From: a virus
Length of the DNA stretch: 64,000 bases
IMG/VR virus record: IMGVR_UViG_3300020472_000016
Coordinates: 1-64,000 of that record
Reading direction: 5' to 3' (one strand)
Below are positions 4,126-60,300 of the stretch, piece by piece. Below the pieces are notes generated by a model. That model made no database searches. It had not been told where the DNA came from and saw only the letters and a list, made by a program, of their open reading frames with translations. Both the position numbers and the translations under genes were made by a program. Every line of letters begins with the position of its first letter. Position 1 is the first letter of the stretch.

Positions 4126-4149
4126 ACAAAGAAGGAGACAGAGTAATCA

Positions 4150-4950: not shown

Positions 4951-4951
4951 A

Positions 4952-5482: not shown

Positions 5483-5499
5483 TTAAATTATTTTTCATT

Positions 5500-29759: not shown

Positions 29760-30289
29760 TGGCTTATGGAATGTTACTACCAGTCGCACCTTACACGGGC
29801 TTGCCGTGTTCAGGGCATGGTATATGCATCCCATCTACTGTACATAGTGTACAGGCATGTGGAACTCCACCAATTCCTTACACGATTAGGATAAAGGAGT
29901 TCACTTGCTGGTGGCCACCTTTCCCAATGATACTCACTGGGACATTAAGTCCACTCAAAGCAACGGTACTAACAAACTTTCTACCGACTTTGACCTTTGG
30001 TGATATGTTTATTAACCATCCATCACCGTGTACTAACATAGTCATATACATGTGTCCTTGTGGAAAGGCAATGTGCCCTATCCCAACACCCATTCCCTGC
30101 TCAGTATTGACGATTGAGGATATGGGTATAGGTCATATGAGGTTCTTATGGGCCACTACCTTCGCTACATACTGTACCAAGCTACCAATAGGTAGAATTT
30201 TGGATCCATTGGGAATCGGATTCCCAGGATTTAGTTATCCTTGTTCATCCGTAGTTGCGTATGGAAGTCCAAATGTGTTATCATCTTAA
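29759..30289 (+). CDS. PAAR-like spike-tip protein (gp5.4-like), Cys/Pro-expanded
   Basis: CSGHG, 'GD....H', 'GRI.D', C-terminal VAYGSPNV; position before gp25. Confidence 0.65.
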   Translation: MAYGMLLPVAPYTGLPCSGHGICIPSTVHSVQACGTPPIPYTIRIKEFTCWWPPFPMILTGTLSPLKATVLTNFLPTLTFGDMFINHPSPCTNIVIYMCPCGKAMCPIPTPIPCSVLTIEDMGIGHMRFLWATTFATYCTKLPIGRILDPLGIGFPGFSYPCSSVVAYGSPNVLSS

Positions 30290-36300: not shown

Positions 36301-39300
36301 ATTTGAGGTTACTGCTCGTCTAGACGACTATTCGTTCTCTTATAGTATACCTACCCCAATGACTATTGTCCCACAGGGTAATATACTACTTTCTGTTGAC
36401 CTGAACCGTGGTAAATCCTCAGTATCAACTATTAATGAGGTAATTTCACTATTCACCTCTAACGTACAGAACTCTTTCTTTAATAACGATTACGTTTACG
36501 TTGCTGCCTCTGGATTGCCCAACTATAAGGTTGGTCCTTTCACTGGGTCTGCTATGATTCCAGGAAACCAGCGTAAACTGCTTCGTTTCCCTAGAACAGT
36601 CTCTACAATCTCCACAAGAACAGAAGTTGCTCCAAATAGTCCAATTGGATCATGGGTTAACGGTGTTTCTGCCTGGTCTTACAAATCTTCCGAGTTTGTT
36701 ACTTTTGGTCCTCTAACTGGTATCAATATCAATAGTGGTGGTGAAGATTATGATGCTGGATCAAAACCAGCACTAGAAATCACTGGTGGTGGCGGTACAG
36801 GTGCTTTAGCGACTGTAACCGTTAATGGATCACTCGATTCAGTCGAAGTTACTGCAGAAGGTACTGGATATACAGAACAACCCCTAATTTCGATTGTTGG
36901 AGGTGGTGGTACTGGTGCTACTGCTCAAGCTGTTGTTACTAACGGTAGAGTAACAAGAATTCTTGTAGAAAACCCAGGAACTGGATATACTGCTCAACCT
37001 ACTATATCAATCACTGGTGGAAACGGTGCTGGTGCCCTCGCTGTTGCCTCTGTAAGAGGTCCAATCAGTGCAGTGACCCTATCTAACTCTGGATCAGGAT
37101 ATACCTCAAAACCGACCATTAAACTGAACTCTGGTGAAGGTGCATTAGCACAACCCATCGTTATCAATGGTAGAATCGTATCTATCGCTATTATTAACTC
37201 TGGAGATGCCTATACTTCAGCACCTAAGGTTTATATCAATGGTGATGGATTTGGTGCTCAAGCAACTGCTATTATTGGAACAATTGGTGAAGATAAAGGT
37301 AAAGTAATCTCAGTATCCATTACTAACAAGGGTGTTGGTTATACCCAAGGTATGACATCCGTTAGAATGGAAGCAATCGGTCAATTAGCAACATTTGCTG
37401 CTGATGTGTACCAATGGAGAAAGAATGTTGAGTATGACTTATCATCTAAGTATGACGTTGCTCGTGGATACGTATTTACGGGATTTAATAACCAATACGG
37501 TGGCGAATACGCTCATGTCTCAGATCCTAAGGAACTACGTTATGTAGTTGGTGATAATGTATTCTTAAATCCTGCCACACAGAATTTCCAAGAAGTTCCA
37601 TCAAATATCGAACACTCTCCTATCATTGGATGGGCATTTGATGGTAACCCAATTTATGGTCCTTATGGTTACATTGATCCAACAGATCAGAACAGTGGCA
37701 TTCGAAGAATGCGTTCCTCTTACACTTTAAAATCAGAAGTTGTATATGATATTGACACCAACCCCACTCCAGCTAGAACTGACGGCCCAGCTCTTGCCAC
37801 ATATCCTGCTGGTAATTTCATCAACGATTATAAGTACACCTTCCAACAAGGAGATCTAGACCCTTACAATGGACGTTTCTGTAAGACTCCAGATTATCCT
37901 GCTGGTACATATGCATACTTTGTAACGATTGACGAGTCAGATGCTGGTATTCCAGTATTCCCTTATGTTATTGGTCCTGAGTACAACTCTGTTGTTGACA
38001 CATGGAACCTTTCACTTAGTGCTGTACAGGAGAACATTCCTGCAGACGTTGCACGTTTCAGAGATCCATATACTAACGTTGATATCGATATTGATCGTCA
38101 ACCTAACCAAGAATCTGATTCATTTGTAACTGAGAAGGAAGGAGACCTTCTTATCTTCGAAATTGAGGATATAGACGGTGATGCTATCATTTCACCTTCT
38201 GAAATTGCTAATGAGCAAGCTATAACTGAGGAAGCTGCTCTAGAAATCTATGATTACTTCCCAAGTGTCTCTACTGAGTCAAGAGTTGACATCGAAGTTG
38301 ATACAACGACTAAATTCGAGAATGCAAGGATTGATGGATTTGTTGTAGAGAATGCTGGTTCTTCTTATCAGGTAAATGACACTTTATACTTTGATAATAC
38401 AGGAACCGACGGTTTTGGTGCTTCTGCTATCATTGAGTCTGTACAGGGACGTACTATTAATGGATATCAGAAAGAAATCATTAATGACATCTCATATGGT
38501 AAAATTACGACTGCAACTGAGCACGAGTTAGTAGCACAGGATGAGATCATCGTTAATTCGAGAGTTATCACTGATAACACGAATAAGCGTTTCTATATGT
38601 CTGTTGTAACAGGTATCGAAGATATTACCGTTACTCAAGTTGGTATTGGTTATAATACTCAACTTCCACCGACATATGAGATTATTACCTCTCAAGGACA
38701 GGATATTAACTTTAATATCATCCTAGACGAGACTACAGGTAAAGTTGGTGAAGTTAACATCATTAACTCTGGTTATGGGTATGATGTAGACAATCCACCT
38801 CAAATTAGGGTTTCACATCCTCAACAATACAAGAAAACTTACTATTGGTTGTCTGAGTACTATGAAGCTGCTGGAAGTATAGAAATATTCGATATTGTAA
38901 TGGCAACTGACCGTTACATGTATGTTTGTGGTGAATTAACTCAAACTAATGGTGATACTGCTGCATTCCTTGCTAAGTTCACCGATTTGGGTGTAATGGT
39001 CTGGGATAGAACCCTTCTACCTAGTGCATCTATTAAGAAGGCACGTTGGAAGTCTATTTACCTTGATGAGACATCTGAAGAGAATAATCTTCTGTATATG
39101 ATTGGTGAAACCGAATCTCAAGGTACTGCGACATATAATCCAGATATTTTGATTGCTAAGTACGAATCTGGGTTTGATAACTCTAATGCACCTGAAGGTA
39201 TTGTTAGATGGCAGAAAGAGATCGCTGGTGTCTCTGGTGCAGCACGTAGAGACTATGCTGGTGACATCTTCATGGATGACGAGCAAAGAGTCTATATTTG

Positions 39301-42300
39301 TGGTTGGACAGACACTAATGCTGTAGATGCCTATGATATTTGGGTTATGCAGCTCAATAACACTGGTGATGTTGTTGAGAAGAGAAAATTCGCTTCTAAT
39401 AGCGAAGGTGAGAGAATGGAGCAACTCCATTACATCGGAAACAACAAGATGCTCTGGTGTGGTGTTGATCAGGACAATAATGACCTCATATTCGGTGAAA
39501 TGGAGTACGATGGTGCTAACATCGAACTCAACTATGTTAAGAGACTTGCTATAAGTGGTGGTGACGTAAAACGTCCTCGTTTCCAGATTGATGAGTATAA
39601 CGATCTCTTCTTTATCTGCGATATGTGGAATGGAACCAAATTCTATGGTTGTTCCTTCCTTAAGATTGCTTTAAATCAACTTTCCACAAACCCAACAACT
39701 CCTGAGTACTATTTCTCTAAGACTATCCAACCTAGTGGTAATTTTGAGTCTATTAATCATGCAGGACTCAGTATTGATGTATTTGGTAACGTTAGTATCG
39801 CTACTGATGTTAAGTACAGTGATAATGACTTACAAGCGGTTGTTATGTCGTTTAAGTACGATGGAACCCTTCTTAAGAGTACTAATATTAAGGATACTGA
39901 TGATATTGGATTTAAGACAAGAAATCATATTGTAGATAACTCTGGTGATGTTATTATTGCTGCTAATAAGCAGAAACCAATTCAGACAGTAGTCAATCGT
40001 TTTGATTCTGCACCTATCTCCTTTGCTGGTGATATTGCTTCTGGTGCTGCAACTGTTACTAATGTAAGTAATGCTACTAGTCTTGCAACTGGAGATGTTG
40101 TCTCAATCACCAGTGGTGCTGGATCAGTAACCCTTGCTGCTGGTGTAAAAGTTCTAACAGCAACTGGAACTACAGTAACTTTAGACACTAATTTCGGTGG
40201 TAGTGGATCTGCCACAGGTGCTATCCTTTCTGCAGTAGATGTTAGTGGTCTTATAGAAGATAGTAGTAAGCAAGCAAATACAACTGCTACCTTCTCAGAT
40301 GTAACTAAAGTCATGCATAACACTGCAGACTATAAGTTTGGTAGTGGGTCACTTAAGTTCTCTGGTGGTCCAACCTATATGAAGCATGCTGGTGCAGGTC
40401 TAACAAGTAATTGGACTGCTTCTGTATGGAGTTTGATGGAAGCATCTCATGCTTCTAACAACCCTAAAGTTGAGATGATCACTATTGATGATGCTTTAGG
40501 AAACGGTATAGTAGTAACAGTAGATGGTAATGCTGCTAGTGGTAACTTAGGTAAGATCGAAATGACCATCGCACCTCAGGGTGGTGGTGGATCAACTATT
40601 GCTTCTGTTGGATCTACTTATTGGACAACTTTACAAGATAGTGCATTCCACCATTGGGCAGTAGTTAAAGAGACACCTTCTCTTGGTTCTTACACCTACT
40701 CTGTTTATTTTGACGGTGTTCAGGTATGTACAGCAACTGTTGCAACTGAAATTGGTCTTAATGATCTTTATATTGGTGCTAATAAGACTTCACCTGCTAC
40801 TGGTAACTGCTTCTTAGGTAGTATCGATGATGTAGTTATCGAACCTAACTCAGTCTTTACTGGTGCTTCATTTACACTACCAACAACTCAATTTGCTATT
40901 ACCTCTAATAATTCTCAACTCAATCTAATCAAATTTGATAGATTACATGATAAGAGAGGTGCTTATAGTGCATTCCCATCAACAACATATACTAAGGCAT
41001 TAACATTTACAGAGACTAGTGGAATCAATGTTAACAATCTTACTAATCCTGTAATCACAGTTTGGGCAGAAGGTTCCTCTGGTTTACAGATCCTTGACAT
41101 GTCAGATACTATATCAACTCTGGCACCAGGAACTTATACATTTACCAATGCAACTCATCAATTTGCTTCTAAGACCTCTACAGTACCTTCACCATTAGGT
41201 GTAAAACTAAAAGTAGATGCTATTGTCATACCGAAGTACTATGTTAGAGATGCTGGATTCCAGAAGATTGATAACGTATTAGAATTCCAATTTAACCAAG
41301 ATGTCAGGTTTACTAAGGGAACTATACTACAGCAGTATAATTCTCAGGGTGTTGTACAGGCATATGGTACTATTGTTGAGGTTCCAACTGGTACTCTAGA
41401 TGAACCAGGATTGGGTGATAAGTATAAGATTGGTAAGATGTTTGGTAACTTTAATGATACCGATCTCTTTAAGAACAATACAGGTGAAGAAAATATAATT
41501 AAAGACGTAATTTTCCAGCCAGAACGGGCACAGGCCGAATGGTTAACTGCTACAGCATATACCACAGATGATCAGGTTTGGAGTGATGGTAAGATCTATA
41601 AAGCAACTAATACTGCTACTTCTGGTGCTACTGCTCCTACCCATGAGATTGGTAACGTAACTGACGGTTCAGTTATATGGCAATACATCAGTGCTGCTGG
41701 TCCTATAGAAGTTGCACTAATAGATCATCCATGGCCAGTTCCTTCCGAACCACTATGGCAAGCAACTAAATCTTATGCTCTTAATGACTTAGTTTACTTT
41801 GGTAGACAGAAGTATAAGTGTACAACTGCTGGTGTAACAGGATCTGTTGCTCCTACTCATACTAGTGGTACTGCTACTGATGGTACTGTGGTCTGGACAT
41901 GGCAGTCTCAATATGATTCTATACATGCTTATGCTAGATTCCGTCCATATGATGCTGGTGATTATAAGGTTAAGATCCTAGAAGTCTATAGTGGATCTGA
42001 CTTTATAGTTGGTGACGTTATCTCACTTGGTGGATCTGTAACTACTGGTCCTAAAGAAGGTGATCCTAAGATTGGTCAAATTAATGGTGTAACTACTGTT
42101 AAGAAGGTAGAATATGTTGTAAATCTAGATAAGGACATTATTAGAAGTGCTAATACACGTACTGACCTTATCTACTGTCAAGCACTATCTCCTCATAGGT
42201 TCCTTGCTGGAGATATCCTCTTTGTAGAAGGATTTACTACTGCACAGTTTAATGGTTCATTCTTCGTAGAAGAAGTGTTCTCTTCTAGAGACTTCCTCTA

Positions 42301-45300
42301 TAGAATGAGAAATGCTGCTGATAGTGAACCAGTATTCTACAATAATGCAATATTTAACGTTAAGATATCATCCAAGCACCCAACATTGATGTTGGTAAGG
42401 AATCACTCTTACGTTTTTGATATGAGTGATGCTTCCAACTTTGGATACTTCCTATCATTCTCCCAAGACAACCAGTTTAAACTTGAGTACTCATTTAACG
42501 TTATTGAGAGATCTGGAACTCCTGGTTTGTCCTCTAACACCGAGACTCCTATAGTCAACTTTACAATCGGTGGTGAAGTTACAAATATCACGTACTATTT
42601 TGATCCAAGCCGAACATTATCCTCTAACTCCCCAGTAGGCACCAACTCCTTCATTGACGTTATTAAGACACCATATGACGGAACATTTAAGATTGCTGAG
42701 GTTATAAGTGAGACTGAATTCAGATTCCCACTAGAAATCGAACCAGAATTTAATAATGCTGAAATTGGTTTAGATGATCAAGATAACCCCAATTCCTACT
42801 ATTCTACAACGTCTACGAAGGCAATTGGACCAATTAACACTATTAAGTTGATCTCTCCAGGTGGATTCTATAGGAAGCTACCAATTATCTCTGATATTGC
42901 TTCAGATCGTAAGATTGAGAAGATTAAGATCAAGAATGGTGGTACTGAGTATGCTGTTGGGGTATATACTCAAGTTCCTATTATTGGTGATGGTGAAGGT
43001 GGTCTTTGTATCATTACCGTCGAACTTGATGTAGAAACCAATTCTGGTACTATAACTGATGTTAATTTAACTGATCCAGGCAAAGGATATACATTTGGAT
43101 CGATTGATGTTGATGGTATTACAGGAATCTTAGGATCTACCCTATCTGGTTCTGGTGGTGAATTAGATGTCGTTATACCTGATGAAGGTACAGGTGCTTC
43201 TGTATTCTTAACTGGTACAGAGATTGGTAAGATCAAAACTCTTAAAAACAATGAATTTGGTTATGGTTACTCTCATGACTATACTTTACGTCCTGAGATT
43301 GCATTCCCAGTCAACTTACAACTCTTTAACACCTCAATTCTCTCTGAGATCAAAATAACTGACCCAGGTGCTGGATATACCTCTGCACCAGTTGTAGTCA
43401 TCTCTGGTGGTGGTGGATTAGGTGCTGATGCAGAAGCAATTGTTAAAAACAACAGATTGTCTGAAATCATTGTTAAAGACCCAGGTGCTGGATATAGTTC
43501 TCAACCAAGTGTTTTACTTAAGTCAGAATTTACATATGTTGTTAACTTAGACCTCAATTACTTACAGTTTAACTTCCCTCATGGTATAACCACTGGTGCT
43601 GCTATTCAGTTCCGTGCAGAGGATATTGGTAGTGATGTTGGTGAATTACCAAAACCAAGTAGTGTTGGTTTGACTTCATTGTCATCCACAACAATATACT
43701 ATGCTATTGCTGGTAACGTTGCTGGTTTAGAATCTGACCAGTTGAGATTTGCTTTAACACCTGCTGATTCTGAATCAGGTAACTATATTACTTTCTTAAC
43801 ACAAGGTAATGGTAGACAGGTGCTATTAACCGAGGTATTCGGTGGTAAAGCAGAAGCAGTCGTAGAAACTTCTAGATTCTTAGAATCTGAAGAAGTATTC
43901 CAAGGTGAGACCTATGAATTGGCAAATGCCTTCGGTACTGTATCAACTAACGATGGTTGGCAGATTGGACCTAAGATTCTTAAGGTTGTTAATCCTAAGG
44001 GTGTTTTTGTCAAGGGTGGTAAGGTTCAGGGTGTAATTTCTAGAGCATCTGGTATTATCGATAATGTACAGATTGCTAAGGGTATTCTAAACATTGATGC
44101 TATCACTAAGACCTCTGGTAGGTTTATTGATGACGTTGGTAAGCCTTCTGAGATTGTACAGAAGATTCAGGACTCTTACTTCTATCAGAACTTCTCATAC
44201 GTTATTAAGTCCCAAATTCCGATCAACCGTTGGAAGAAACAGATATTAGAGAATAACCACCCAGCTGGCTTTAATATGTTCGGTCAGTTGGAATTAACGG
44301 GCGGTAAGGACATCTCAGGCCGAAAAATTGGTACTGAGTTTACTAAGCAGGTAAACATAGATGAATACACGAATGTTAACCAAATTACGTCCTTTGGTGC
44401 TGCTCAACCGATCTATTCTACCTTTAACAACTCTGAAGTTTTATTCAGGAAGAAAAGACTAACAAACTCCGAGGAAATTCTAACTTCTATCGTTAAGAAG
44501 ATTGATAGCATTTCTGATCAGTTTGATGGTGCTACAAAGGCATTTAACCTTACTGTAGAAGGTGATCAGGTTATTATTAAAGAAAATCAGATGTTGGTCA
44601 CCTTAAACGGTGTTATCCAATCTCCTGGTGAAGCATATCAAATTGTTGGTAATCAGATCGTATTTGCTGAAGCACCACGTCCTGATTCTAAAGTTATCTA
44701 CAGAAATGTCGATATTACCGTTTTACCGATTAAGAGACTTAACTTAACTCAGATTGGTGGTATTTTCCCACAAATCGGTGATATCATCACATCTAAGTTT
44801 AATAACGTTAACTCAAGTGCTAAAGTCATTGATACTAGTACTAATACTGTTGATATCATCCAAATCATCGGTACAACGTTTGTAAACAACGCTAGAGTCG
44901 ATGTAAGTAGAACTGGGTTCAGTGCGTTCATTGGAAGCATCGATGACGTTAATCAGTCAACTATTTTCGAATTTGGCGAAACAGTTACTAAAGTTGATCT
45001 AGCTGGCGAAACAGCAATTATAGAAGAGACAAACCTCGATTTAGATGGTAATCTCGATAATAGTCTTGTACTTTCCAAAACTTCTGGTACTGCACAGTAT
45101 GAAACTGGTGCTTACAACATTTTACTCAATGATGTCATATATTCGGCAGGATCGAAGATTGCAGCTCAAGTAACTGGAATTTCACCTTATAGAGACCCAG
45201 TTACCTCTATTAACCTTGCACAAGCAGTTGCATTCGAAGAAGACCAATTAATCACTGGTGGAAGTTCTGGTGCTCAAGCACTAGTTGTTAGAGTGGATGC

Positions 45301-48300
45301 AGAAGCTAATCCACCTGTTCTTTACTATGTTAAGAAAAATACCCCCGATTTCGTAGATGGAGAAACAGTAACTAACCAAAATGCTGTTAATGGAGTTATA
45401 TCGGGTGAACCTAAGGTTGGGGACGTTGTAGACACTTTAATCATCAACAAAGGTTCTTCATTCTTTGGATTGGTCTTTGAGCGTCTTATTTCACTTTCTA
45501 ACCAGAATGTCATCCTAGATAACATTTCAGAGACTACAATTAGTCCTGTTGAGTTAAACAATGCAGCAAATCGTATTAACGCTGATTTCTTGGATTATGA
45601 AGAAGTTCGTTCTACAGAGATCGAATATAGCGGATTAAGTGGTGGTTCACTTGCCGTTAACGATGTTATCCGTTCTATCAACGTAACTTATGGTAACCCT
45701 GTAACTGACGCACTTAACAGATATAAGGATGCTGCTAGAAGTATAAGAAATAATAGACAAGAAATTATCGATTTTGCAACATCACAGATTGCAATTGACT
45801 ATCCTGGTTTCTACCACACTGGTGACAATCAAATTGCCCAAATGGGTAGATTTAAGGATGCTTATCGTTTAATCCAGAAGAATAAGGAATGGATCATTGC
45901 TAAGTCTTATGATGAGATGATTACTCAATATCCTGGTACTACTATTCCTAGTGCTACTAAGTGTAAGAGAGACCTTGGATATTTCATCGATGCTCTATCC
46001 AGAGACACAGGATGGGGTGGAACAGTCTATACACGTAAATTGTGTAATATGTTCTTCCCAGATGGATCTACCTTCCAATACGTTAATTCTCAAGCTAATG
46101 AGATTAACTATGGTTATGGTAAGGCATATGATCATATGGTCGAAGCACTTACTAACACATTAAGTGGTTCTGAGACAATCGATTCTGTTGCATATACGAA
46201 GTATAATGAACAATCTACAGGCGGTTCTGGTGGATCAGGAATTACTGCTGACCCATCTCCAGGAGATAACTACGGTACTTCTGGTTCTAACGCCACCAAT
46301 AATGGTCCTAATAATTGTGCTGATGTTACAGCAGCACTGAACACTCTTTGGACTAATGTATCAGAGGTAATACTCTCTGCTTCTTTAACTGACCTTATTG
46401 ATCTTTCACAACCTGTTGCACTAACACCATTAGAAACTAAGTGTACTCGTGACACTGGTTACTTCATCGATGCTATTGCTGATGACCTAGATGGTGATGG
46501 TAACTATTATATGGTTGAGTTCACTAAGAAGTTCTTTAATACTGACGGTGTATTCATAGGTCTTCCAGAAACACAGGAAGCAATTACAGCATTTAATGCT
46601 GCTAAGGATCTGTGTAAGAATGCAATGAGAAATATCATGTATGAGCAAACACTTGCTACTGCTGGATATAACCTCAATGATCCTACAACATATTCTGCAC
46701 CTTACTTAAACAGTTCTTCTACTGCCCAATATTACGATCCTAACTACTCTTCAGGTAGTAACCAAGGTGGTACTAATTGTGCAAACGTAGCAACTGCTAT
46801 TGACACATTAGCAAATATTGCAACTACTTCCTTCACAGGTGCTCAATTTACACCATCTGCTGCATCATACACTGCTGCTACTGGTGACTTAATTCTAACA
46901 ATTGGATCACATAGTTTGACAACTGCTGATACCGTTAGGATAGAACCTAATTCATTGACATTCACTTGTGCGATGGACGGCAATACTGCCAATAAGACAT
47001 ATCCTCGTTCTAGTGACCCAACCTACAACCAGCAGATTGCAATTACTGCTGTAGGTGCTACAACTATTACTGTTAACGTCGGTGCATCACCTATTGTTAA
47101 CCACACAGTAACTGGTGCTACTTACGACCCAGTATCAGGTGTCATGGTATTGACCATTGGTGCTCATACTTTAGGAGTTGGGGAAAGTATTAAGATTGCT
47201 ACTGGATCATTAACCTTTAGTTGTGATCAGGGTGGTACTGTTGGAACTGGAACTTATCCTCGTTCTACTGGAGCAAGTACTGGCGACGGTGAGGACTATG
47301 CATACGACACCGCTATAGAAATTACCGCCAAGACTGATACTACAATCACTGTTAACGTTAACGGTGGACAGGGTGCTGTTACTAACACCAATGCACATAC
47401 ATTTGTATCTGCTACACCTAACGGTATACAGAGTGGTGGTAACTATACACACACCTTTGTTTCTGCTGGTACTAACTCAGTATCTGAGGGTGGTGGTCTT
47501 GCATATATTAATTCACTCGCTACTGTTACCGATGGTACTTACGAGGAAGGTGAGAACATAAGGGTTTATAAGTTTGCTTATAAGGATAGAGCTGGACTTG
47601 GATTCTTTACTCCTGGTGATACCATTAAGGGTCATAAGTCTGAAGCAAACTTCTCATGTAAGGGTGCTAACTCTGGATTACGTTGGCTCTATACTAATGC
47701 TCTAACTGGTACATTCCAGAACAGAGAGTATATTACAAATACAAAACTTACAAATGTTGCTGGTGCATCTAACGTTACTGTTACACCAACAAACGCAACC
47801 TATGATGCTGCTACTGGACATTTAACAATAACAGTTGCTGCTCATGGATTCTCTACAGGTAATGAAGTTTCTATTGCTGCAAATGCAATTAGATTTACTT
47901 GTGGTATGGATGCTAATGCTACTCAGCATGATTATCCAAGACTTACTGACCCTGTTGCTAATAATGTTAGATTACCTATCATTAAGACAACAGCAAGTAC
48001 ATTTACTGTAAACGTTGGTTCATCTCCACTTAAGCATTACACACCAACTGGTGTTGATTATCAACCAGATACAGGTGTAATGTCAATTACCATTGGACCT
48101 AACAATCTTAACGTTGGTGAGAAGATTAGATTTAAGCCAGAGTCATTAGTATTCACATGTGACCAAGATGGTAACCAAACAGAGCATGCTTATCCAAGAA
48201 GTTCTGACCCATTCTATAATACTTCATGTAACATTGATGGTATTACATCAAGTACTTACTCAATTACTGGTGCATCATATCTTCCTGCTAAGGGAACTTT

Positions 48301-51300
48301 AAATCTTACCATTGCTAATCATGGATTCTCGAATGGTGAGATGATCAAGATTGCTGATAATTCATTAACCTTCACTTGCACGAACGATAATAATGCTACA
48401 AACCATACTTATCCAAGAACAACTGATCCAGCAAGTTATCAGTGGTTACCTATTTCAGTAGTTGATAATAATACTATTGGTGTTCAGATTGGTGTTTCTA
48501 CTGATATTTCAGTTCACACCTTTGTAAGTGCAACTTCTAATAATATTACGAAACAAGATGGTGGTGTTATCGTTGTTAATGTACTAAACAGTTCTCCTTC
48601 TACTAACACTACTTTACACACCTTTGTACGTGGTGAAGATGCCATTATCACTGGTGGTGACTATGCTCACACCTTTGTAAGTGCAGTATCTAACTCCTTC
48701 ACTGTATATCCAGCGAAGGCAAGATTAACTTCACTCGATAAGCGTAGTGGAAGTAACTCTCTAGTATTAGAATCAAATGCATATCTTACTCATGATCTAT
48801 CTGATGTAAATGCATTTGGTTCTAGCAACTTTACTGTAGAGATGTGGATCAAGGCCAAGGCAGTAACTGGTGGACAGTATTTGTTCGACTTCCGTACAAG
48901 TGGACTTAGTGAGACTGGATCTTTAAGTCTATATCTTGATGGTGGTAGTATCAAACTTGCTTACGATAGTGCTGATGTTATTAGTGGTTCTCATGGAATC
49001 AGTGCTGGTACATGGACTCACGTAGCAGTATCTAAGACTTCTGGTATTACTAAGGTATGGGTTGGTGGTGTTCAGGTTGGAACAGACTACAGTGACAGCA
49101 ACACTTATTATGAAAGAAAGATAACCATTGGTGCTGCTCAAGATGGTGCCAACTTCTATCAAGGTCATATTGATAATTTTATTATTACTAAGGGAGTATC
49201 TAAGTATCAAGCATCATTCACTCCTCCTGTCATCTTTACTACTAATGATGATATATCATTCTCTATGAGTAATGAGCATCCTATCATTATGAGTGATAAG
49301 GATAGTTATGCAACCTTCACTGGTACTACAAACTCTGCTGCTGCAGCCAAGAAGGTCAATTACGCTAATAAAGAAATAATTGTTGAGGATGTTCAGCTCT
49401 CTAGAGATGAGCATCGTAGAGCTGCTGATATGCTCGAACTTAACAGAGCATGGATTGCCGAAACAGCAGTTAATAAGATGAAGGCTAAGTATCCTGACCT
49501 CTTGATGCCAGGTGATACTGCTGATGGTATTGGTCCACAACAGGGTACTACATTCTGTTTAAGGGATACACAAGAGTTTATCCTTAAAGGTATCATAGAT
49601 GATATCCGTTATGGTGGTAACTATAACAGTACAATTGCTGCTAGATCTTACTTAACTGCTTATGAAGGTCTTGAGCATATTGCTAATGAAGTACTTCAGT
49701 CGATTTACACATATAGAGAATTAGCACCTATCTGTAACTATGTTCTAACAACTACAAGTACAGATCTTGAGAACTATGGTGTTGATGGTGATGGTAATCC
49801 TATCAAGTACACTGACATTCTTCGCATACCTAACAACTTCTCTTCACCTATAGCTCAGACTATTCAGGATGAGATTGTAGCACTTGGAGATGAGATTGGT
49901 GACATCATTGGACCTACTGGACAGAGGTTCAGAGATGCTGGTGATATGATCTGGAAGAACCGTGATGTAATTGCAAACGAAGCAGTAGGTTGGTTGGAAG
50001 CAACTTATCAGAAAGATATTAATGGTACTGTTTATGACTTCTATACAAACCCCAATGCGAACGCTAATAAGTGCACCCATGAGATCAAGACTTATATACT
50101 TCCAGCTATCGTTGCTGACTTGGTTACTGGTGGTAATTCTGGAATACGGAACGTTACCGCCAAGTTCCTAAATGCGAATGGCGAACTCTATTCTGTTGAT
50201 AATGAGTTAAGTGCTGTATTGGATGTATATGAGTATGTTGGTAAACTTTGTAAGCATGCAATCAATAACACTCTAGTAACTAAGGGTAGTACTGCTGCTG
50301 AACTTGGTGTACCATCTGAGTATCAAGATGATTATCATGTTAACGAGTATACCGAACTGACTGTATACAGAGATGATACCATTACTATTGACTCTGAAGG
50401 TTACAATGCTTTCAGAACTTCTAACGATAGACTGTTAGATGCTGCAGATATGCTTGAGCGTAATGCTAATGTCATTGCTTGGGAAGCAGTTCATACCATG
50501 AATGATCTATCGAAGTATCTTAACTTCGGTGTTCCTGATGGTGCACAGAATTGTGTAGATGATGTTCTCGATGTATTAGGTGCTGTTGTTCATGATATAA
50601 GAAAAGGTGGTAACTCTAAGACTTGGGATGCTGCTAGTCTCTATCTTAATAAAGAAGATAAGTCTCTTATCCAGTTAAATGGTCGTCAACACACTCATCA
50701 GTATGTAAGATCAGAACTTGACGCTATTTACACTGGTGGTAACTACGATCATACCTTCGTTACTGCTGCTACTAACGCTGTAGTAGATGATGGAAGTAAT
50801 AATTTCACTCCAACTAACGTAGTTTACACTCCTGGAGACGGTAAGTTAGTTATTACCATGCCTAATCATGGATTAGCTACATCAAATACTATTACTATTG
50901 CAGAAGAATCACTAACATTCACCTGCTCAATGGATGAGCATGCTTCGAAGCACAAGTATCCAAGAAAAGGTGACCCTGCATACGGTAAATCTATTGCTAT
51001 TCTTGAGACTACAATCTCCACAATCACTGTTAACGTTGGTGCTTCACCAATAGTTAACTATAATGTCTCCAATGCTGACTATAACGCAGTAACTGGTGAT
51101 CTAACAATGAACGTTGGTGCTCATACATTGCAACCTGGTACTTCTATTAGGTTCAGAGATGGTGCTTTAACCTTCAGTTGTGATAGAGATGACTATGCTA
51201 CAGAGCATTCTTATCCTCGTATTAGTGATCCTGTATATAATACCTCTGTAAATGTCTCTAGTGTTGGTACAACCACATCTACACCTACCGATGCATCATA

Positions 51301-54300
51301 CGATACATCAACAGGTATTGTAACGATCACTCAGAATGGTCATGGATTCACTGGTGAGACTACAGCAAGTACTTCTGATGCTGCTTACAATCCTAATACT
51401 GGTATAATGACCATTACATCCAATGGTCATGGATTTGCTGCTGGTGATAGCGTTAAGATTGCTGGAAATTCACTAACATTCACATGTGGTTTTGACGGTG
51501 ACCTCTCTAACCACACATATCCAAGGTCAACTGACCCTGCATACAATTCTTGGTTACCTGTACTTAACGTAACTACAAATACATTTGATGTTCAGGTACT
51601 AAAAGAGATTCCATCTACTAATGTTACCGTTCATACCTTCGTTTCTGCTACTGCTAGTAACATAACCAAGGCAAATGACTATGTAATGATCGATGAGAAT
51701 GCATTATCAATGAGTTGTGATACTGGATCTGGTGCTCAGACTAAGACTTATCCAAGACCACAGGATCCTGCATACAAAGCATGGTTACCAATATCAAATG
51801 TACAGTTAAACACCTTTGATATACAAGTATTATCAACAGTACCATCTACAAATACAAATGCTCATACATTTGTGTCATTTGCATCTAATGGACTGTCTAG
51901 ACAGACTGGTAATATTACAGTTAATGTCGGTGTAGCACCTGGCGAAGACGCTGCTGCTATTAGTGTTCTTAAACTTGCTACTGAGATGGCAATAATGACC
52001 ATGCGTAATGCATTTGGTCGTGAGAATCTCTATATCTTCGACCCAGAACCTGACCCTGACGGTGATACTACACCTGCAGGTGGTGATGAGTCTATTGATA
52101 ACGTTGATGTTGAGTCTTATGAGCGTAATGCTGTTAAGGATAGGTTCATTAACGCTGCTGATCTCATCGAAAGAAACATTCGTTTGATTGCTGAAGAGTC
52201 TATTGCTGCTGCTTTAGTACAATATCCTTCACTCAACATTCCTGGTGGTAACATCAACTGTGTTCATGACTTAACTGACTTCTTGGATTCTATGGTTTGG
52301 AACCTCCGTCATGGTGGTAACAACAAGGTCTTCCATGCTGCTGAATACTATGTCAATGAAGGTCTGACACATAACACTGAAGCAACTTGGATCACTAATT
52401 ACGCCAGAGATCTCGCCATCCAGGTGATGAGGAACGAATCTCTTGCACTTAACTATGGTAGAGACCCTGCATTTGATACTGCTGTACCTATTGTATCTGT
52501 TGCCTCTACTCAACACACTGCTACTGATGCTTCTTACGATGCTGGTACTGGTTTACTGACTTTAACAGTAGCTGGTCATGGTTTTGCAGAGGGTAATAGA
52601 GTCAATATTGCTGACAATTCATTGACATTTACCTGCTCAATGGACGGAAATTACAGTAATCACACCTATCCTAGACTCTCTGATCCTGTAAGTAACCAGT
52701 GGTTACCAATTATTTCTACATCTACTGACACATTCACAGTCAATGTTGGAGTATCAAGGATCAAGAAATTTACTCCCACAGCAATTAGTTACGAGCCGAA
52801 CACTGGTAACCTCATAATGACTGTGGGAGTTCACGACCTTGCGGTTGGAACTAACCTAAAAATCGAACCTAATTCACTCACATTTACTTGTGCAATGGAT
52901 AATGGTGCTACTAATCACACCTATCCAAGAATTACTGACCCAGTACATGACGAGCCAATTGAGATCGTAGGTGTAACTGAAACTACTGTTACTGTTAACG
53001 TTGGTACTACTGGCATCACAAACTTTGATATACATGATGCTGAGTTTAATCCTACTAGTGGTCAACTTGATATCAATATTGGTGCTCACACCTTTAGAGA
53101 AGGAGAGAGTGTTAAGTTAGGTACTAATGCATTAACCTTTACTTGTGCAATGGACAGTCATGCGACTGACCATGCATATCCTCGTGCTTCTGGTCCTGGT
53201 GGTCCTGATGCAGGATATAATACTTCCATATCAATCGATAAGATTGGTTTAGACACCTATGATATAACCAATGCTGGATATAATCCAACAACAGGTGTTA
53301 TGACAGTGACTATTCCTAGTCATGGATTTAAAGGAAGAACTACTCATACTCCAACTGGTGTAGAATACACACCTGCAACTGGTAAGATGATTATCAGTCT
53401 TGCTAATCATGGATTCCAGAATGATGACAGAGTTAAGATTGGTCAAAATGGTTTAGTATTCACATGTGGTATGGATGGACATACAACCAACCATGCTTAT
53501 CCTAGAAATTATAATTCTTCTGCTCCTGGTGGAGAAGACTATGCATATGACAAGTGGTTACACGTTACTAATGTAACTCAGAACACATTTGAGGTTAACG
53601 TTGGTGTATCTTCTAATCAGACTGAGCATACATTTGTCAATTCAGTAACTAACTGTTTGACTCATGCTGGTGATCACGTTAAGGTCTGCACTAAGGCTAT
53701 TGGATTTAAGTGTACTAAGGATGGTAACTCCACTACTCACTCATATCCAAGACAGTCCGACCCATCATATGATGAGTGGTTACCTGTTACTAACGCAGGC
53801 ACAGATACATTTGACATCTTTGTTGGATTCTCTGGTCCTAATGACAACTATACTCACACCTTTGCTGCTAATACTGATTTAACACCTACTAACGCTGCTT
53901 ACGATCCTAATAGTGGTAAGATGACTCTTACCGTTAACGATCACGGTATGCAGAATGGTGATACCATTTGGATCGAAGACGGTGCTGTAACCTTTAGATG
54001 TGGTGAAGATAGTCAGAGTTCAGACCACGCATATCCAAGAAATATTACTGATACATTTACTATCACTGGTGCAACATATGATGCTGCTGCTGGTGTTATG
54101 GAATGTACTGTTGCCAACCATGGATTTGGTAATGGTGCGATGGTTAAGTTTGCACCTGGGTCTATCAAGTTCACTTGCTCGATGGATAATTATGATACTA
54201 CTCATGCTTATCCAAGACATGACGATCCTATCGCTGACAAGTGGATTCCTGTATTTAATGTAGAGACAAATACTTTCCAAGTTCGTGTTGGACAATCAAT

Positions 54301-57300
54301 AGAGAAGCAATGGACTCCTAGTGCTGCTGCTTACTCACCAACAACAGGTGTTATGGATCTGACTATTGGTGCTCATAATTTCCGTGCTGGTGCATCATTA
54401 ACACCTTCTAACGCTGACTATAACCCAACATCAGGTATCATGAGATTGACCATTGCTGGTCATAACATTGCTGAAGGTGAGCATATTAAGATTGCTGATA
54501 ATGCACTGACATTCACATGTACATTAGATGGTGGTAGTGCACAGAAGACATATCCAAGACCTTCTACTATTAGTCACACAGCAACTACTGGTACTACACA
54601 TGATCCTTCTACAGGTATCTTACATATCAATACTACGTCTGCACATGACCTAACCAATGGAGATTGGGTTAAGTTTGCTGACAACTCCTTGACATTTACT
54701 TGTGGTTTAGATGGAGATCAAACCAACCATTCTTATCCTAGGGCAGATGACCCAATGAGCGGTAAGTGGGTACAGATTTCTAATGCTACTGCTAGTGGAT
54801 TTGATGTACAAGTTCTAAACTCAATACCTCAGTCTAATACTTCTACTCACGTATTCGTATCTGCTACATCTAATGGTATCCAAACTAGAGACCCCTTCAG
54901 TGGTCGTTGGATGGAAGTTAGAGAAGTTGGTACAGATTGGATTGATGTTAAAGTTCTAACTACTGCACCTTCTACTAATACTAATCCACACACCTTCATA
55001 AGTGCTGCTGCTAATTGTATCCAGACATCTGGTGACTCTGTAAGAATCTCTGCAAACTCTATTACCTTCACATGTAATAAGGACAGCAATGCTACTCAGC
55101 ACACATACCCAAGAGCAGCAATGAATGCTGCTGGTGGTGCTGACCCAGTATATAACGGTGCTGCTAAGATTGTTGCTGTTACTGATACTACTATCAGTGT
55201 ATGGGTTGGTACTTCTGCTAACACTACATCGCACTCCTTTGTTTCTGCTGCTGCTAATGCAGTTAGATCTGGTGGTACATATACACACAACTTTGCATCT
55301 GCTGATGCTAATGGTCTTTCACAACAACGTGACTGGGCACATAACAACTACATTCCAATTTCCGATGTAACTACTAACACATTTAGTGTACAGTTACTAC
55401 AGAAGATTCCTTCTACTAATACTACTACACACGTATTCCAGTCTGCTGCTTCTAATAGCATTCATAGAGGTGTTATACAGAAACAAAATGGATGGATCCA
55501 ACTTAATGTTGGTACTTCATCTAATACTTCATGGCATGGATTTAAGTTCGCTGATTCTGGTGCTCTGATAAGTGGTGGTTACTATGATCACTCATTTATA
55601 TCTGCATCTACAGGTGCTGTACATACAGGTGGTGACTATATTCACGACTTTGTATCTGCTGTCACTAATGGTATTACCAGACAGAATCCTTCAGGTATAG
55701 TAACACTTGATATTGGTGCTTCTGGACCTAATGATCAGTATACTCATACCTTCGTATCTGCTGCTAACGGCGCATTGATTACTGGTGGTAACTATGCTCA
55801 CAAGTTTGTATCTGCTACAGACCGTGCATTGGTAAGTGGTGGTAATTATGAGCACACATTTGTATCTGCTGCATCTAACTCAGTTAATGTAACTGGTGGA
55901 TCTCAGTTAACTCCAACTAATGCTGCTTATGATCCTCTAACTGGTCATCTAACATTGACCTTTGGTTCTGCTCATGGGTTGACTGCTAACATCAATACAG
56001 TCACAATTGATAACAACGCAATACAGTTCTCTTGTGAATTTGATGGTAATTCATCCACTCATGGATATCCAAGATCAACTGATCCTGCTTCGGGTACAAC
56101 TTTAACTATAATTTCTAACACAACAGATACTATTACTGTTAATATTGGATCCACTCCTGAGGTTAACTTTAACGTAACCGACGCTACCTATGATGCTGGT
56201 ACAGGTAACCTAACACTTGATATTGGGTCTAATAGTCTACAAGGTCCTACACTTGGTTTAACACCTACTGATGCCGCTTACAACCCCACTACAGGTATCA
56301 TTACACTTACTATCAACGGTCATGGATTCGCTAACGGTGAATACATTAAGATTGCTGATAATGGATTAACTTTCACTTGTACTCAAGGTGGTGGCAACCA
56401 CTCATATCCAAGAGTTACTGACCCTGCATCTGGTAAGTGGTTAACAATTTCTAATGTACAGACAAATACATTTGATGTACAGGTATTAGATACAGTTCCT
56501 TCCACCAACACAACAACTCATACACTGGTTAGCATTGCTAATGGTTGCGTTGATAAGGCAGGTGAATCTGTCATGGTTAGACCTAATTCTTTGACCTTCA
56601 CATGTCAACAGGATAACTACTCTACTAACCATACATATCCTCGTGCTAAGGATCCATCATTCGATAGACCTATTCCTATTGTTGGTAAGTCTGGTCAGAC
56701 TATTACTATCGATGTTGGTAACTCTGCCATCGTTACATATACTCCAACAAATGCAACATATGATGCTGCAACTGGATATCTAGCAGTAACAATTGGTGCA
56801 CACGGATTGTCAACAGGAACTACTGTTAAGTTGGCACCTAACTCCTTTACATTCACATGTACAAGAGACGGCAATACTGCTCAGAAGACATATCCTAGAG
56901 GTGGTCATACCTTCGCTCAGAAGTTCTATGCTGATCTTGACTTCTATCCTTACAATCAAGGTGAATATGTAATCACTGCTGATACTGCTAATCCTAAGTG
57001 TGCTGACGTAGCATCTGCTATTACATCCTTGATGGGTCTGTATACTGATGCTATTGCTACACCTGCAAGTCTAACTGACGGTACTATTAGTAAGACTCTA
57101 CCAAATATTTGGCCAGTTAAGTACGCTTCAGAAATGGTAATGCGTGATGTTAGTGTCACCTTCGATCAGAATGGTGCTACTACTGGTGATTGGAATACTA
57201 CTTGTGTTGGTGTTGCAGATAAGATCGAAGGATTGATGGATATTGTCATCAATACTATAGAACTTGCATCTGGTGGTGGTGGTAGTCACTTAGATGCTGT

Positions 57301-60300
57301 AGAACGTGAAGTTCCATGGAGATTTAACAACAACTATCAGTTCTATACATGCTATAACGTAACATCAGCAACTGACACACTCTTTGATGTATTGTTAAGT
57401 ACTCTTGGTGGTGGTTCTAAATCTGATAAGCATTGTGCACGTCACATACTCTTTAATTATCATGCTATTACTGCTAAGGCATTTGAGAGAACTCAAAATA
57501 ACCATCCAGATACTACAGCAGATATAACATTTGCTGAGAATATGGTAAAGGCTTTGATGTACGACCTGAATACAGGTGGTAACCAAGGTATGCTGAAGTT
57601 AGCTAACTCTTGGTTCGATGGTGAAGGTAACTTCATAGCATTCGGGAATATCGTTAGACAGCACTTACTCTTCTATGTTACACGTATACGTGAGTATGTT
57701 AAACGTGGTTTATATGACTACAACAATGATACACAGTGGGCAGGATATGATCTATATCTAGAACCATCCAATACTGCTGCTATTAATAATAGATTTGAGT
57801 ATGAGAAGGAATCTACAGAATTTACAATTGATAGTTCTATCAACCTTGCATTCCATGCACTGAATAGATCTCAAGCACCTTCCACTAATAAGATTGATTA
57901 TATCAATAGTGATAATATCACTAACATGACTAATGTATATGATGAAGGTGAAGATTATAATACTGATCCAGAATTGATCCTATTGACTCCAACTATTGAG
58001 GTTGGATTTGAGAGAAGAGAGAACACTGTAACAGTACATAAACCTAACTTCTTCTCACGTGGTGATGTCCTTGCATACGTTCCTGCTTCTCAGGATTTGG
58101 ATCCTAATTTACAGGATCAGGAATACTATTATGTCCTTAATGCTGAGGCAGATTACTTCGAAGTTACTCGTGAGAAGCGTCATGATGCAAGATATAGACA
58201 GTTTGCATTCGATCAATCTTTAAAAGGTCAGCAAAGATTGCAGACAGTTGTACGTACTGGTATCAATATGCCAGCAATGGTTTCACCTGTAAGGGATAAC
58301 GCTCAACCAATTAGTGCTGGATTTAACACTGCTGATTATCTAGTTGGATCTACTTCTAATGCTTCTTCTGAGGTTGTTCGTACAATGAACAATGAAGCAG
58401 ATATCATTAAACTCTATAAGAAGTTTAATATAGACGCAGCAACTGGTAGGTTTACTAATGGTGAGACCATACAAGTACAGGGTGCAACAGCTAATAACGG
58501 TATTGTTGTTCAGACTTCTGCGTTAACAGGTGATCAGAGCAATGAAGGGTGGATATATGTTGAGGATATGAATGGAACATTCTCTGATAATGATGTATTA
58601 GAGGGTGTAACTAGTGGAATCACTAATGCTGTTAATGGTACTAGTGTTGAGCGTATGCTAATTAACACCTCTAGAGGTGCATTTAAGCAAGATGAGAAGA
58701 TCTTTAACAAAGGTAATAGTGCTGAGGCAGACATCGTTAAGTATGAAAACTCTGCTGGTGCTCTTGTAGGTAACAGTGGTGGACGTATTACTATCGATAT
58801 CGAAACTATCCAAGATGACTTTACTGATGGTGACGTTATCTATGGTTCTATAACTGATAAGATCCTTGATATAGCATATATCACTGCTACTGGATTCGAA
58901 GAACTAACTCTTAACCAGTACGTACATGCAGAATCTCAGGTAGAATGTGATGTAAATAACATCATTCGTGATGGTGGATATGCAGGAAACTTTACTGCTG
59001 GTGATGTAGTTTATCTCCTCGCAGGTACTACCATTAAGCAACCAGGATTCACTGCTGTTGTCACTAAGTATCAAGCATTTGATGATAGTGTTACTCCTAA
59101 CATCCCACATAAGATTTGGATTGCAAACCTCAGACCATATGGAACTAACTCTCAAGGTGAGGTAGTTACACCTGATCCTCAGGAGTTAGCCTCTGGTGGT
59201 ACTGCAATTGGTAAGTTTGAGAACCTCAATAACTTCCCAATTATCCTCGCTGAGATGAGTAGTGTAACAGTCACTAACTACAATTCTTACGGTAGGGTTT
59301 CTGGTAAGGATATTACTGGTGACACAGGTAGGATTTGGTTGGAAGATGTTGTAGGAGATTTCCCAAGCAATATCACAATTAAGTCTGATGCTGGTTGGTA
59401 CGCTGGTGTTACTCAATCTAAGGGTCTAGTTGGACGTTGTAACAGATTCTTTAGAGGATTTGATGGTACACAAACATCCTTTAAACTTACTACAAATAAC
59501 GGAGAAGCATACTTCCCAGATCCTGCTGGACACCTATTGGTATTCACTAATGGTGTTCTACAACCTCCAGGTGGTACACAAGCATACACAGCATTCTCTG
59601 ATCAGATTCAGTTCACTGAACCTCCAACAATCGGTTCTGAGTTCATCGGATACTACGTTGGTAAACTTAGACAGTTGGATGATATCAGCTTTGAGTTTGA
59701 CTCGTTACGTTCATCCTTTAACCTCAGGTACGCTGGTGGATTCTACTCCTTGACACTGACTGAAGGTGTTTCTTCTAGCACTATACTTCCAGAAAACAAC
59801 ATTGTTGTTTCTCTGAATGGTGTTATTCAGGAACCTGGAGTTGGTTATGAACTGGTTGGTTCACGTATCATCTTCGCTGAAGTTCCTCGTGCGGGATCAA
59901 CATTCGTTGCATTCTCCTATATTGGTTCTGACGCAGACGTTATTGCTGCTACAGTCGTACCTCCAATTGAGGCAGGAGACTTATTACAAATTGATGGAGA
60001 AGGAGAGAATCGTGAAGTTGCTCTAATTGAGTCTTCTAACTCTTTGATTACCTTCGAGTACACAGGAACTGTTAAGGGTCGTGGTGCTGCAGCACTTGCT
60101 CAGATAACCTCTGGTGAAATGACAACAGCAATTATCACCTCTCCTGGTGATGGTTACTCTTCACGTCCAAACGTTGATGTTATATCATCTTCTGGATTTG
60201 ATGGTCGTGTTCGTGCTCTAATGGGTCTCTTGAGGATTGATGTTAAGACTGCTGGTGTTGGTTACGCTCAACCACAAGTTGCAATCCACAACGTTGTTGA

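Follow-up and report, generated by a model that had tools for sequence, protein, structure and literature searches.

Does the particle of an ocean cyanophage contain relatives of the phycobiliproteins and, if so, do these relatives bind a bilin pigment? This question is raised by a 64,000-nucleotide stretch of viral DNA (positions 1 to 64,000 of the IMG/VR record IMGVR_UViG_3300020472_000016; hereafter, the window), which is part of an 81.5-kb contig of an uncultured ocean cyanobacterial virus, judged 44% complete. It encodes a giant open reading frame (ORF) of 9,152 amino acids (aa), in which a preliminary description, made from the letters alone, had pointed out six cysteine-retaining helical repeats and proposed a possibly bilin-pigmented virion. 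The repeats are diverged modules of the phycobiliprotein, or bilin-binding-globin, fold (helices A to H, lacking the X-Y hairpin) that were inserted in a gp7-type baseplate wedge protein.

Phycobiliprotein-Like Repeats in the Giant ORF

An iterated hidden Markov model (HMM) search identified seven full copies and one half copy of a helical domain of 115–160 aa in the giant ORF (Table 1), and the same tally was obtained for its orthologue in cyanophage P-RSM6 (Prochlorococcus NATL2A), the closest cultured relative of the window. The six motifs quoted in the preliminary description were all found at the residues given there (Cys4221, 4381, 5419, 5591, 5751, and 6320) in the translated ORF, and all six repeats are real, but the count was low, with the half copy and copy 7 having been missed. 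Likewise, the interval assigned to the repeats (45719–52330) covers copies 1–5, whereas its end cuts copy 6 and leaves copy 7 (57416–57838) outside.

The Pfam phycobiliprotein profile PF00502 matched residues 4001–7000 of the giant ORF with 47.6 bits (E 2.2e-12). Copy 1 alone scored 26.5 bits (E 7e-6), exceeding the gathering score of 22.2 for membership in the family, while copies 3 and 6 alone stayed under the cut-off (19.7 and 15.5 bits, respectively), and copies 2, 4, 5, and 7 gave no PF00502 match when searched singly. The match spans profile positions 29–85 only, restricting the sequence signal to helices B to E.

In the reverse direction, profiles built exclusively from phage copies were compared with all 177,635 distinct PDB sequences. 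Profile A1, comprising 16 copies from the window and three related contigs, yielded 140 matches at E ≤ 1, the best 60 of which were all phycobiliproteins, with E-values down to 1e-5; for profile A3 (89 copies, mean column identity 18%), the 27 top-ranked matches were phycobiliproteins without exception. The profile alignments were in register, placing the phage Cys, Arg, and Asp on Cys84, Arg86, and Asp87, the invariant Asn on the helix-B Asn, and the phage G-G-N on the G-G-T turn 18 residues past the Cys. In these alignments, the family consensus K-C-x-R-D-x-G-Y corresponds to the phycocyanin alpha-84 site. Within the giant ORF, the helix-E motif Cys-x-Arg-Asp was found in copies 1–3, and in copy 1, in line with the resemblance to phycocyanin alpha noted earlier, KCKRD is followed by GGT at Cys+18.

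Predicted Fold of the Repeats

Copy 1 with its flanks was modelled using AlphaFold (AF2; model mb724d577484a), resulting in a pLDDT of 60.8 overall and of 66–91 in the core blocks. Among the Foldseek matches listed to rank 50, all were phycobiliproteins or fluorescent proteins engineered from them, with weak E-values of 0.08–0.3; re-alignment gave Z-scores between 11.7 and 12.4 (at Z 12.4, root-mean-square deviation (rmsd) 2.4 Å over 117 residues). For copy 3, an AlphaFold model based on an 89-sequence alignment (mb41ecdee81d2) reached a pLDDT of 83.8 and a pTM of 0.83.

The structure search covered 48,161 chain representatives and was run without the Foldseek pre-filter. The best match of the copy 3 model was a phycoerythrin beta chain (5aqd_M; Z 16.0, rmsd 2.8 Å, 150 out of 174 residues, chain residues 23–182), followed by allophycocyanins (Z 13.8 and 13.3), phycoerythrin alpha (13.0), and the bilin domain of ApcE (12.8 to 12.0), so that the top eight chains (Z 16.0 to 12.0) were all phycobiliproteins or ApcE. 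Photocobilins (Z 11.4 and 11.1) and heme globin sensors (≤10.4) ranked lower. The ranking for copy 1 was the same, its top nine chains all being phycobiliproteins, ApcE, or photocobilins. The models are thus predicted to adopt a globin-like fold with helices A, B, E, F, G, and H arranged as in solved phycobiliproteins. The globin/phycobilin fold anticipated in the preliminary description is borne out independently in three ways: by the Pfam match over the cut-off, by the retrieval of phycobiliproteins with phage-only profiles, and by the best matches of the predicted folds (Z up to 16.0).

A chance or convergent likeness of an amphipathic helical repeat to phycobiliproteins is extremely improbable. 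A single-sequence PDB search did place designed pentatricopeptide repeats at the top, while phycocyanin reached no better than E ~0.14, and the Foldseek E-values for the first (copy 1) model were weak; however, the Pfam match lies over a curated threshold, the reciprocal profile searches were specific, and the Z-score of 16.0 was reached over 150/174 residues and helices A to H, with phycobiliproteins outranking all other helical folds. A coiled-coil resemblance was rejected by the same Pfam, profile, and structure results, and the pentatricopeptide match represents a short helix and is not meaningful. Homology of the phage domains to the phycobiliprotein branch of the globin fold is therefore established from profile comparisons and predicted structures.

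The N-terminal X-Y helical hairpin, which builds the alpha-beta monomer and the (alpha-beta)3 rings of phycobiliproteins, was not found in the phage domains, the structural alignments beginning at chain residues 23–33. In multi-copy relatives, the copies follow one another every 110–145 residues, leaving no room for such a hairpin, and its absence indicates that the domains are not canonical light-harvesting subunits. With phycobiliprotein alpha and beta subunits (CpcA/B, CpeA/B, ApcA/B, and the cryptophyte beta subunit), they share the globin-like fold (helices A to H), the helix-B Asn, the P-G-G turn, the helix-E K-C-x-R-D-x-G-Y, and the G-G-(N/T) at Cys+18, all in register. In contrast to these free subunits of 160–180 aa, the phage domains are 115–160 aa long, stand in tandem in giant virion proteins, possess a near-invariant Asp (Cys+14) and Tyr (Cys+30) of their own, and, lacking the hairpin, are not expected to form an alpha-beta heterodimer or ring.

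The bilin-binding (PB) domain of ApcE offers a second comparison, since it also represents a phycobiliprotein fold within a large multidomain protein (4xxi_A; Z 12.8, rmsd 2.2 Å, 115 residues). ApcE, however, has the domain only once, interrupted by a loop insertion, and serves energy transfer in the cytoplasm, whereas the phage domain occurs in 7.5 copies in a virion protein and in up to 35 in relatives. ApcE attaches its bilin without a lyase, providing a precedent for self-attachment.

Conservation of the Cys/Arg/Asp Triad

With profile A1, a HMMER scan of 1.84 billion cluster representatives recovered 1,402 proteins at an E-value threshold of 1e-3, of which 421 also passed 1e-30. This corresponds to a family of no fewer than 1,402 clusters (50% identity), in which one protein can contain as many as 35 matched stretches. 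For the analysis of conservation, 1,238 near-full-length copies were taken from the 150 top-ranking proteins. At a mean pairwise identity of 29%, Cys was retained in 96%, Arg in 93%, and Asp in 99% of the copies, and the Asp at Cys+14 and the Tyr at Cys+30 were each kept in 98%. Among Cys-bearing copies (n = 1,191), Arg was present in 95% and Asp in 99.9%, compared to 47% and 68%, respectively, among the Cys-less ones (n = 47). Cys, Arg, and Asp therefore behave as a unit and are lost together. In phycobiliproteins and in bilin biosynthesis-associated globins (BBAGs), the three residues serve the chromophore, providing the thioether link, the propionate contact, and the pyrrole-nitrogen contact; C-x-R-D is a recognised bilin-binding motif, and BBAG proteins carrying it self-assemble with bilins (PMC10151467).

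Just two other columns of the 1,238-copy set hold Cys at all (5.7% and 4.3%), so that the family has no conserved disulfide partner for the motif Cys. The preliminary description had considered a disulfide with the Cys of a downstream 'CA(D/N)V' motif. Such cysteines do exist (aa 4339, 4493, and 7900), but they sit in the first helix of the next module, and the pairing was rejected at the family level, where other columns reach ≤6% Cys. A conserved unpaired thiol in an extracellular protein would be unusual unless modified or buried.

The giant ORF is a weaker example than the family consensus: three of its six Cys-bearing copies lack the Arg, compared to 4.8% family-wide. The motif series of copies 1–7 in P-RSM6 reads KCKRD, KCNRD, FCLRD, KCSYE, NCVDD, NCVHD, and none. 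Since this orthologue shows states corresponding to those in Table 1 (identical for copies 1, 3, 5, and 6), the copy-specific motifs are stable rather than randomly decaying. Copy 5 leads straight into beta repeats. At copy 4, the loci L011 and L018 retain C-x-R-D.

That the same fold serves another ligand or chemistry (heme, another tetrapyrrole, a metal, a redox-sensitive thiol, or an intermolecular cross-link in assembly) is improbable. Heme is bound by the globin-like fold as well, and the globin sensors reached Z-scores up to 10.4 against the copy 3 model; copies 4–6 swap the Arg for His or Asp while keeping the Cys, and BBAG-2 proteins bind biliverdin without C-x-R-D (PMC10151467). The phage profile, however, retrieved phycobiliproteins only and no heme globins, the consensus is that of the phycocyanin alpha-84 site, and a conserved His at the globin proximal position is missing from the alignment of the family.

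Distribution across Phages and Association with Bilin Genes

To determine the distribution of the domain, 50,697 cultured phage records were searched by tblastn. Copies 1–2 as the query matched 355 records, and the domain array of an unrelated jumbo contig matched 271, all of them cyanophages; the carrier proteins are annotated as short tail fibre, tail fibre, baseplate wedge initiator, or virion structural protein. A cyanophage-only domain, as these records would have it, was rejected by uncultured contigs. As a new finding, the family also occurs in uncultured T4-superfamily phages that lack psbA and cpeT and possess capsids like those of heterotroph phages.

Three such genomes, G001, G002, and G003 (256, 236, and 330 kb; 72, 66, and 93% complete), were fetched via the multi-copy protein P0004. 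Their domains feature textbook motifs (e.g., KCERD.GYI.DA...YD..YGGN), and no psbA, psbD, or cpeT was found in them. The T4-type major capsid protein of G003 shares 70–76% identity with its counterparts in jumbo phages that infect Sinorhizobium, Vibrio, Pseudomonas (PA5oct), and Erwinia; no such domain was detected in the cultured relatives PA5oct, Vibrio phage 2.275.O, and Sinorhizobium phage Phosso. The host marker pmoC was found in none of G001–G005.

In G003, the stop codon of a heme oxygenase gene overlaps the start of a ferredoxin-dependent bilin reductase (FDBR) gene by 4 nt, and this reductase shares 51% identity with the PcyX-type enzyme from pelagiphage Mosig. In the region of the cassette (L117:7197-13293; IMGVR_UViG_3300042564_002819, 269–275 kb), the two genes are preceded by an Hsp20 gene and a GMP-reductase-like gene. 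They are followed by CsgF, CsgG, and two curlin-repeat proteins, representing a curli secretion set in a 330-kb jumbo phage, from which a Gram-negative heterotrophic host may be inferred. If gene order is conserved, the cassette would fall outside the stretches covered by the G001 and G002 contigs, as calculated from the positions of the capsid genes.

Conversely, 25 contigs were chosen for a G003-like reductase. Two near-complete ones among them, G050 (208 kb, 100% complete) and G053 (318 kb, 85%), encode three and six domains, respectively, and two fragments also bear the domain. G003, G050, and G053 all combine the lack of psbA with a hemO-FDBR cassette and three to seven domains each. The capsid of G050, in which no psbA was found, is closest (70%) to Sinorhizobium phiM12 and phiN3 and the Methylophilales Melnitz phages, and this differing affinity places G050 in another lineage than G003. 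One G050 ORF (L202:514-3102, minus strand; at least 862 aa in a 987-aa open frame) encodes three phycobiliprotein-like domains (KCKRD, TCVRD, and a third without Cys) and, by eye, an apparent N-terminal, tailspike-like beta-helix in this 208-kb phage with its phiM12-like capsid. Furthermore, the fragments G020 and G046, which were selected through the domain, each carry an FDBR. The preliminary description had noted that its proposal would suffer if the repeat were equally common in phages of non-phototrophs lacking bilin genes; outside cyanophages, carriers of the domain with bilin-synthesis genes were found.

The nearest isolate, P-RSM6, encodes ho1, two adjacent FDBRs, and cpeT elsewhere in its genome. 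The two FDBR genes lie side by side (NC_020855.1, 73522–74722) and score 163.7 and 54.1 bits, the second being far more diverged. In S-PM2, a distance of 1.4 kb separates cpeT from a downstream gene that encodes a domain-bearing protein of 3,792 aa. RefSeq places about 14 tRNA genes inside this uninterrupted frame (NC_006820.1, 168556–170110), and the coding sequence has a tRNA-style locus tag, which suggests wrong coordinates or a mistaken annotation in this entry.

A similar gene linkage was described for BBAG-1 and BBAG-3, phycobiliprotein paralogues with C-x-R-D that occur outside cyanobacteria, are linked to heme oxygenase/FDBR genes, and self-assemble with bilins (Rockwell et al. 2023, PMC10151467). 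G003, G050, and G053 show the same linkage at the genome level rather than the operon level, whereas BBAGs are small cellular proteins encoded in operons.

Ligand-free host mimicry, in which the domain would imitate phycobiliproteins to bind a host linker, lyase, or protease during assembly or entry, is very improbable. It would fit the restriction to cyanophages among the 50,697 cultured records, but the domain is also present in phages without psbA that have heterotroph-phage-like capsids, one of them with curli genes. Moreover, the X-Y hairpin used in phycobiliprotein assembly is absent, and the baseplate does its work at the cell surface, away from the cytoplasmic phycobilisomes. No paper describing these phage domains was found in the literature covered, which excluded subscription journals, and a jumbo-phage review contains no mention of a globin or bilin domain.

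Light-Dependent Adsorption

Light-dependent adsorption of cyanophages has been known since 1979 and is still without a mechanism. Darkness prevents adsorption of P-HM1 and P-HM2, whereas P-SSM2 still adsorbs, though less than in the light, and the podovirus P-SSP7 adsorbs in the dark as well (PMC6628666). For S-PM2, adsorption is cited there as requiring light but not host photosynthesis (Jia et al. 2010, cited in PMC6628666), and the light effect is ascribed to unknown light-sensitive receptors and/or tail fibres (PMC6628666). The phage domain was counted six times each in P-HM1 and P-HM2 and eleven times in S-PM2, but zero times in P-SSM2 and P-SSP7, a pattern in agreement with light-gated adsorption. 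P-SSM4 has three of the domains.

Proposed Bilin Binding and Its Main Alternative

For the copies with an intact triad (at least copies 1–3), covalent binding of a bilin in the infected cell is, by analogy with phycobiliproteins and BBAG proteins, given about an even chance. In the proposed mechanism, copies 1–3 would take up the bilin in the infected cell during late assembly, the Cys forming a thioether bond with it and the Arg and Asp keeping it in place in the manner of phycobiliproteins. Its attachment might proceed by self-catalysis, for which ApcE and BBAG proteins are examples, or with the aid of a phage CpeT-type lyase, and the virion baseplate would bear a few dozen chromophores. Copies 4–7, the altered motifs of which are conserved in P-RSM6, may represent structural or differently tuned modules. 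The most probable use, suggested by a second and weaker inference, would be the gating of adsorption through a light-dependent conformational change of the baseplate or fibres. That many T4-superfamily virions, of cyanophages as well as of uncultured, probably heterotroph-infecting phages, carry covalent bilins as an adsorption-gating photoreceptor should be regarded as quite doubtful.

The chief alternative is a pigment-free structural module: a phycobiliprotein domain captured once and now used as a compact helical block that lengthens or stiffens baseplate and fibre proteins, with Cys, Arg, and Asp retained for folding or inter-module packing. This explanation is credible, though somewhat unlikely. 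The long tandem arrays, with up to 35 matched stretches per protein, resemble structural fibre repeats, and copies 4–7 persist with altered or absent motifs that are conserved in P-RSM6. On the other hand, residues serving only the bilin in the parent family (PMC10151467) are conserved at 96/93/99% in spite of a mean identity of 29%, the triad is lost together, the conserved Cys of an extracellular protein has no partner, and the domain co-occurs with hemO-FDBR cassettes in phages without psbA.

Several observations weigh against bilin binding. The full C-x-R-D triad is present in three of the seven copies of the giant ORF (copies 1–3), and copies 4–6 keep the Cys without the Arg, a state conserved in P-RSM6, so that the domain is evidently maintained without the canonical site. 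The Fisher tests for correlated loss of Cys with Arg and with Asp (P ~1e-19 and ~1e-21) take no account of common descent or of degenerate copies being misaligned. No ho1, FDBR, or cpeT was found on the window's own contig, which is uninformative because this contig is only 44% complete. An exclusive association of the domain with CpeT was rejected, since CpeT is absent from G003, which is 93% complete. The co-occurrence sample is biased, since G050 and G053 were selected through the FDBR, and the adsorption comparison is a lead only, because it comprises five phages, two of them near-identical. We know of no report of coloured cyanophage particles or other pigmented virions, which also suits a pigment-free module. 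At six gp7 copies per baseplate (T4 stoichiometry) and 3–6 sites in each, however, 1e12 particles per ml are estimated to contain about 3–6e-8 M bilin and to have an absorbance of a few thousandths, so that a lack of visible colour does not count against bilin binding. Finally, phages with bilin genes can be without the domain: neither the phage profile nor PF00502 detected it in Mosig (hemO and pcyX) or in P-SSM2, which carries ho1 and pebS (PMC3037559). The notion that phage bilin genes always accompany the domain was thus rejected, and the domain cannot be the sole reason for phage bilins.

The Giant ORF as a Baseplate Protein

The gene order around the giant ORF is that of gp25, gp6, gp7, and later wedge genes, as also seen in the annotation of P-RSM6, in which the syntenic orthologue (8,573 aa, 'virion structural protein') is placed after the gp25 and gp6 homologues. 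The gene two positions downstream matches phrog_677 (baseplate wedge-tail fibre connector). Both ends of the giant ORF match phrog_701 ('virion structural protein', a 6,136-position profile) and phrog_2885 ('baseplate wedge subunit'), and a match to PF23786 was detected as well. Based on its neighbours, the synteny with P-RSM6, and the phrog and Pfam wedge matches, the giant ORF is classified as a much-expanded gp7-position baseplate protein of a T4-like cyanophage. With T4 gp7 and its cyanophage counterparts (phrog_701 and phrog_2885), it shares the position after the gp25/gp6 homologues and the end regions similar to wedge/virion structural families. Compared to T4 gp7 (~1,030 aa), it is nine times longer, and its middle 5,000 residues consist of lectin-like, beta-repeat, and phycobiliprotein-like insertions.

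In total, the Pfam matches in the giant ORF include two Laminin_G_3 domains and a weak CBM_5_12. A YHYH domain (PF14240, 99.4 bits) was also identified within this protein (window 37493–37933, aa 1398–1544). The phycobiliprotein-like blocks are separated by beta-type repeats of the motif L-T-F-T-C-x-x-D-x5-H-x-Y-P-R, which feature one Cys and one His per unit and a spacing of 59–124 aa within arrays; 15 'H-T-F-V-S' units are also present. No Pfam family matched these repeats (46955–56899), and their conserved Cys, His, and Asp may constitute a metal site, judging from the motif. A 176-aa ORF (window 29759–30289), situated between the gp6 homologue and a baseplate-related protein of 1,375 aa, matches a PAAR-motif family (phrog_281, E 7e-17) and is probably the spike-tip protein.

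Table 1. Positions of the giant ORF, its phycobiliprotein-like copies, and associated features in the window.
Feature	Window position (nt)	Strand	Giant ORF position (aa)	Motif and Cys	Basis
gp6-like baseplate wedge subunit, directly upstream of giant ORF	31207..33297	+			phrog_219, E 7.7e-197
Giant ORF, gp7-position baseplate-wedge/virion structural protein bearing all phycobiliprotein-like copies	33302..60760	+			9,152 aa
Baseplate_wedge			699-739		Pfam
Laminin_G_3			2356-2513		Pfam
Half copy, first helices only, without E-helix	45713..45835	+	4138-4178	without Cys	HMM; separate PF00502 stretch 45728-45841
Copy 1	45839..46252	+	4180-4317	KCKRD, Cys4221 (nt 45962-45964), GGT at Cys+18	PF00502, 26.5 bits
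Copy 2	46316..46819	+	4339-4506	KCTRD, Cys4381 (nt 46442-46444)	HMM; without own Pfam match
Beta-type repeat arrays, at least 21 units, interspersed, separating the phycobiliprotein-like blocks	46955..56899	+	4552-7866		regex count and positions
Laminin_G_3/concanavalin-like lectin domain, between both helical blocks	48797..49186	+			PF13385, 52.5 bits
Copy 3, long B-E loop	49400..49903	+	5367-5534	FCLRD, Cys5419 (nt 49556-49558)	PF00502, 19.7 bits
Copy 4	49916..50398	+	5539-5699	KCTHE, Cys5591 kept, Arg and Asp replaced	HMM
Copy 5	50420..50833	+	5707-5844	NCVDD, Cys5751 and Asp kept, Arg replaced	HMM
Copy 6	52133..52549	+	6278-6416	NCVHD after PGGN, Cys6320 and Asp kept, Arg replaced	PF00502, 15.5 bits
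Copy 7, recognisable domain	57416..57838	+	8039-8179	without Cys/Arg/Asp triad	HMM; P-RSM6 orthologue equally without motif

Implications for Phage Biology

The purpose of the bilin genes in phages, including those of Prochlorococcus, which lacks phycobilisomes, and those of non-phototrophs, has been called a 'mystery' (PMC3037559) and 'still enigmatic' (PMC11480375). If the domains do bind bilin, they would constitute the acceptor hitherto missing for at least some of the phage ho1/hemO, pebS/pcyA/pcyX, and cpeT genes, and a photoreceptor in the baseplate would explain light-dependent adsorption that is independent of host photosynthesis. Two old questions, namely adsorption only in the light and the presence of working bilin-synthesis and lyase genes in phages, are now testable on a defined protein and a defined residue. 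A photoreceptor within the virus particle would, if it exists, represent a new kind of virion function. Should the domain turn out to be pigment-free, it would still clearly exemplify how a light-harvesting fold of the host has been recruited for virion construction.

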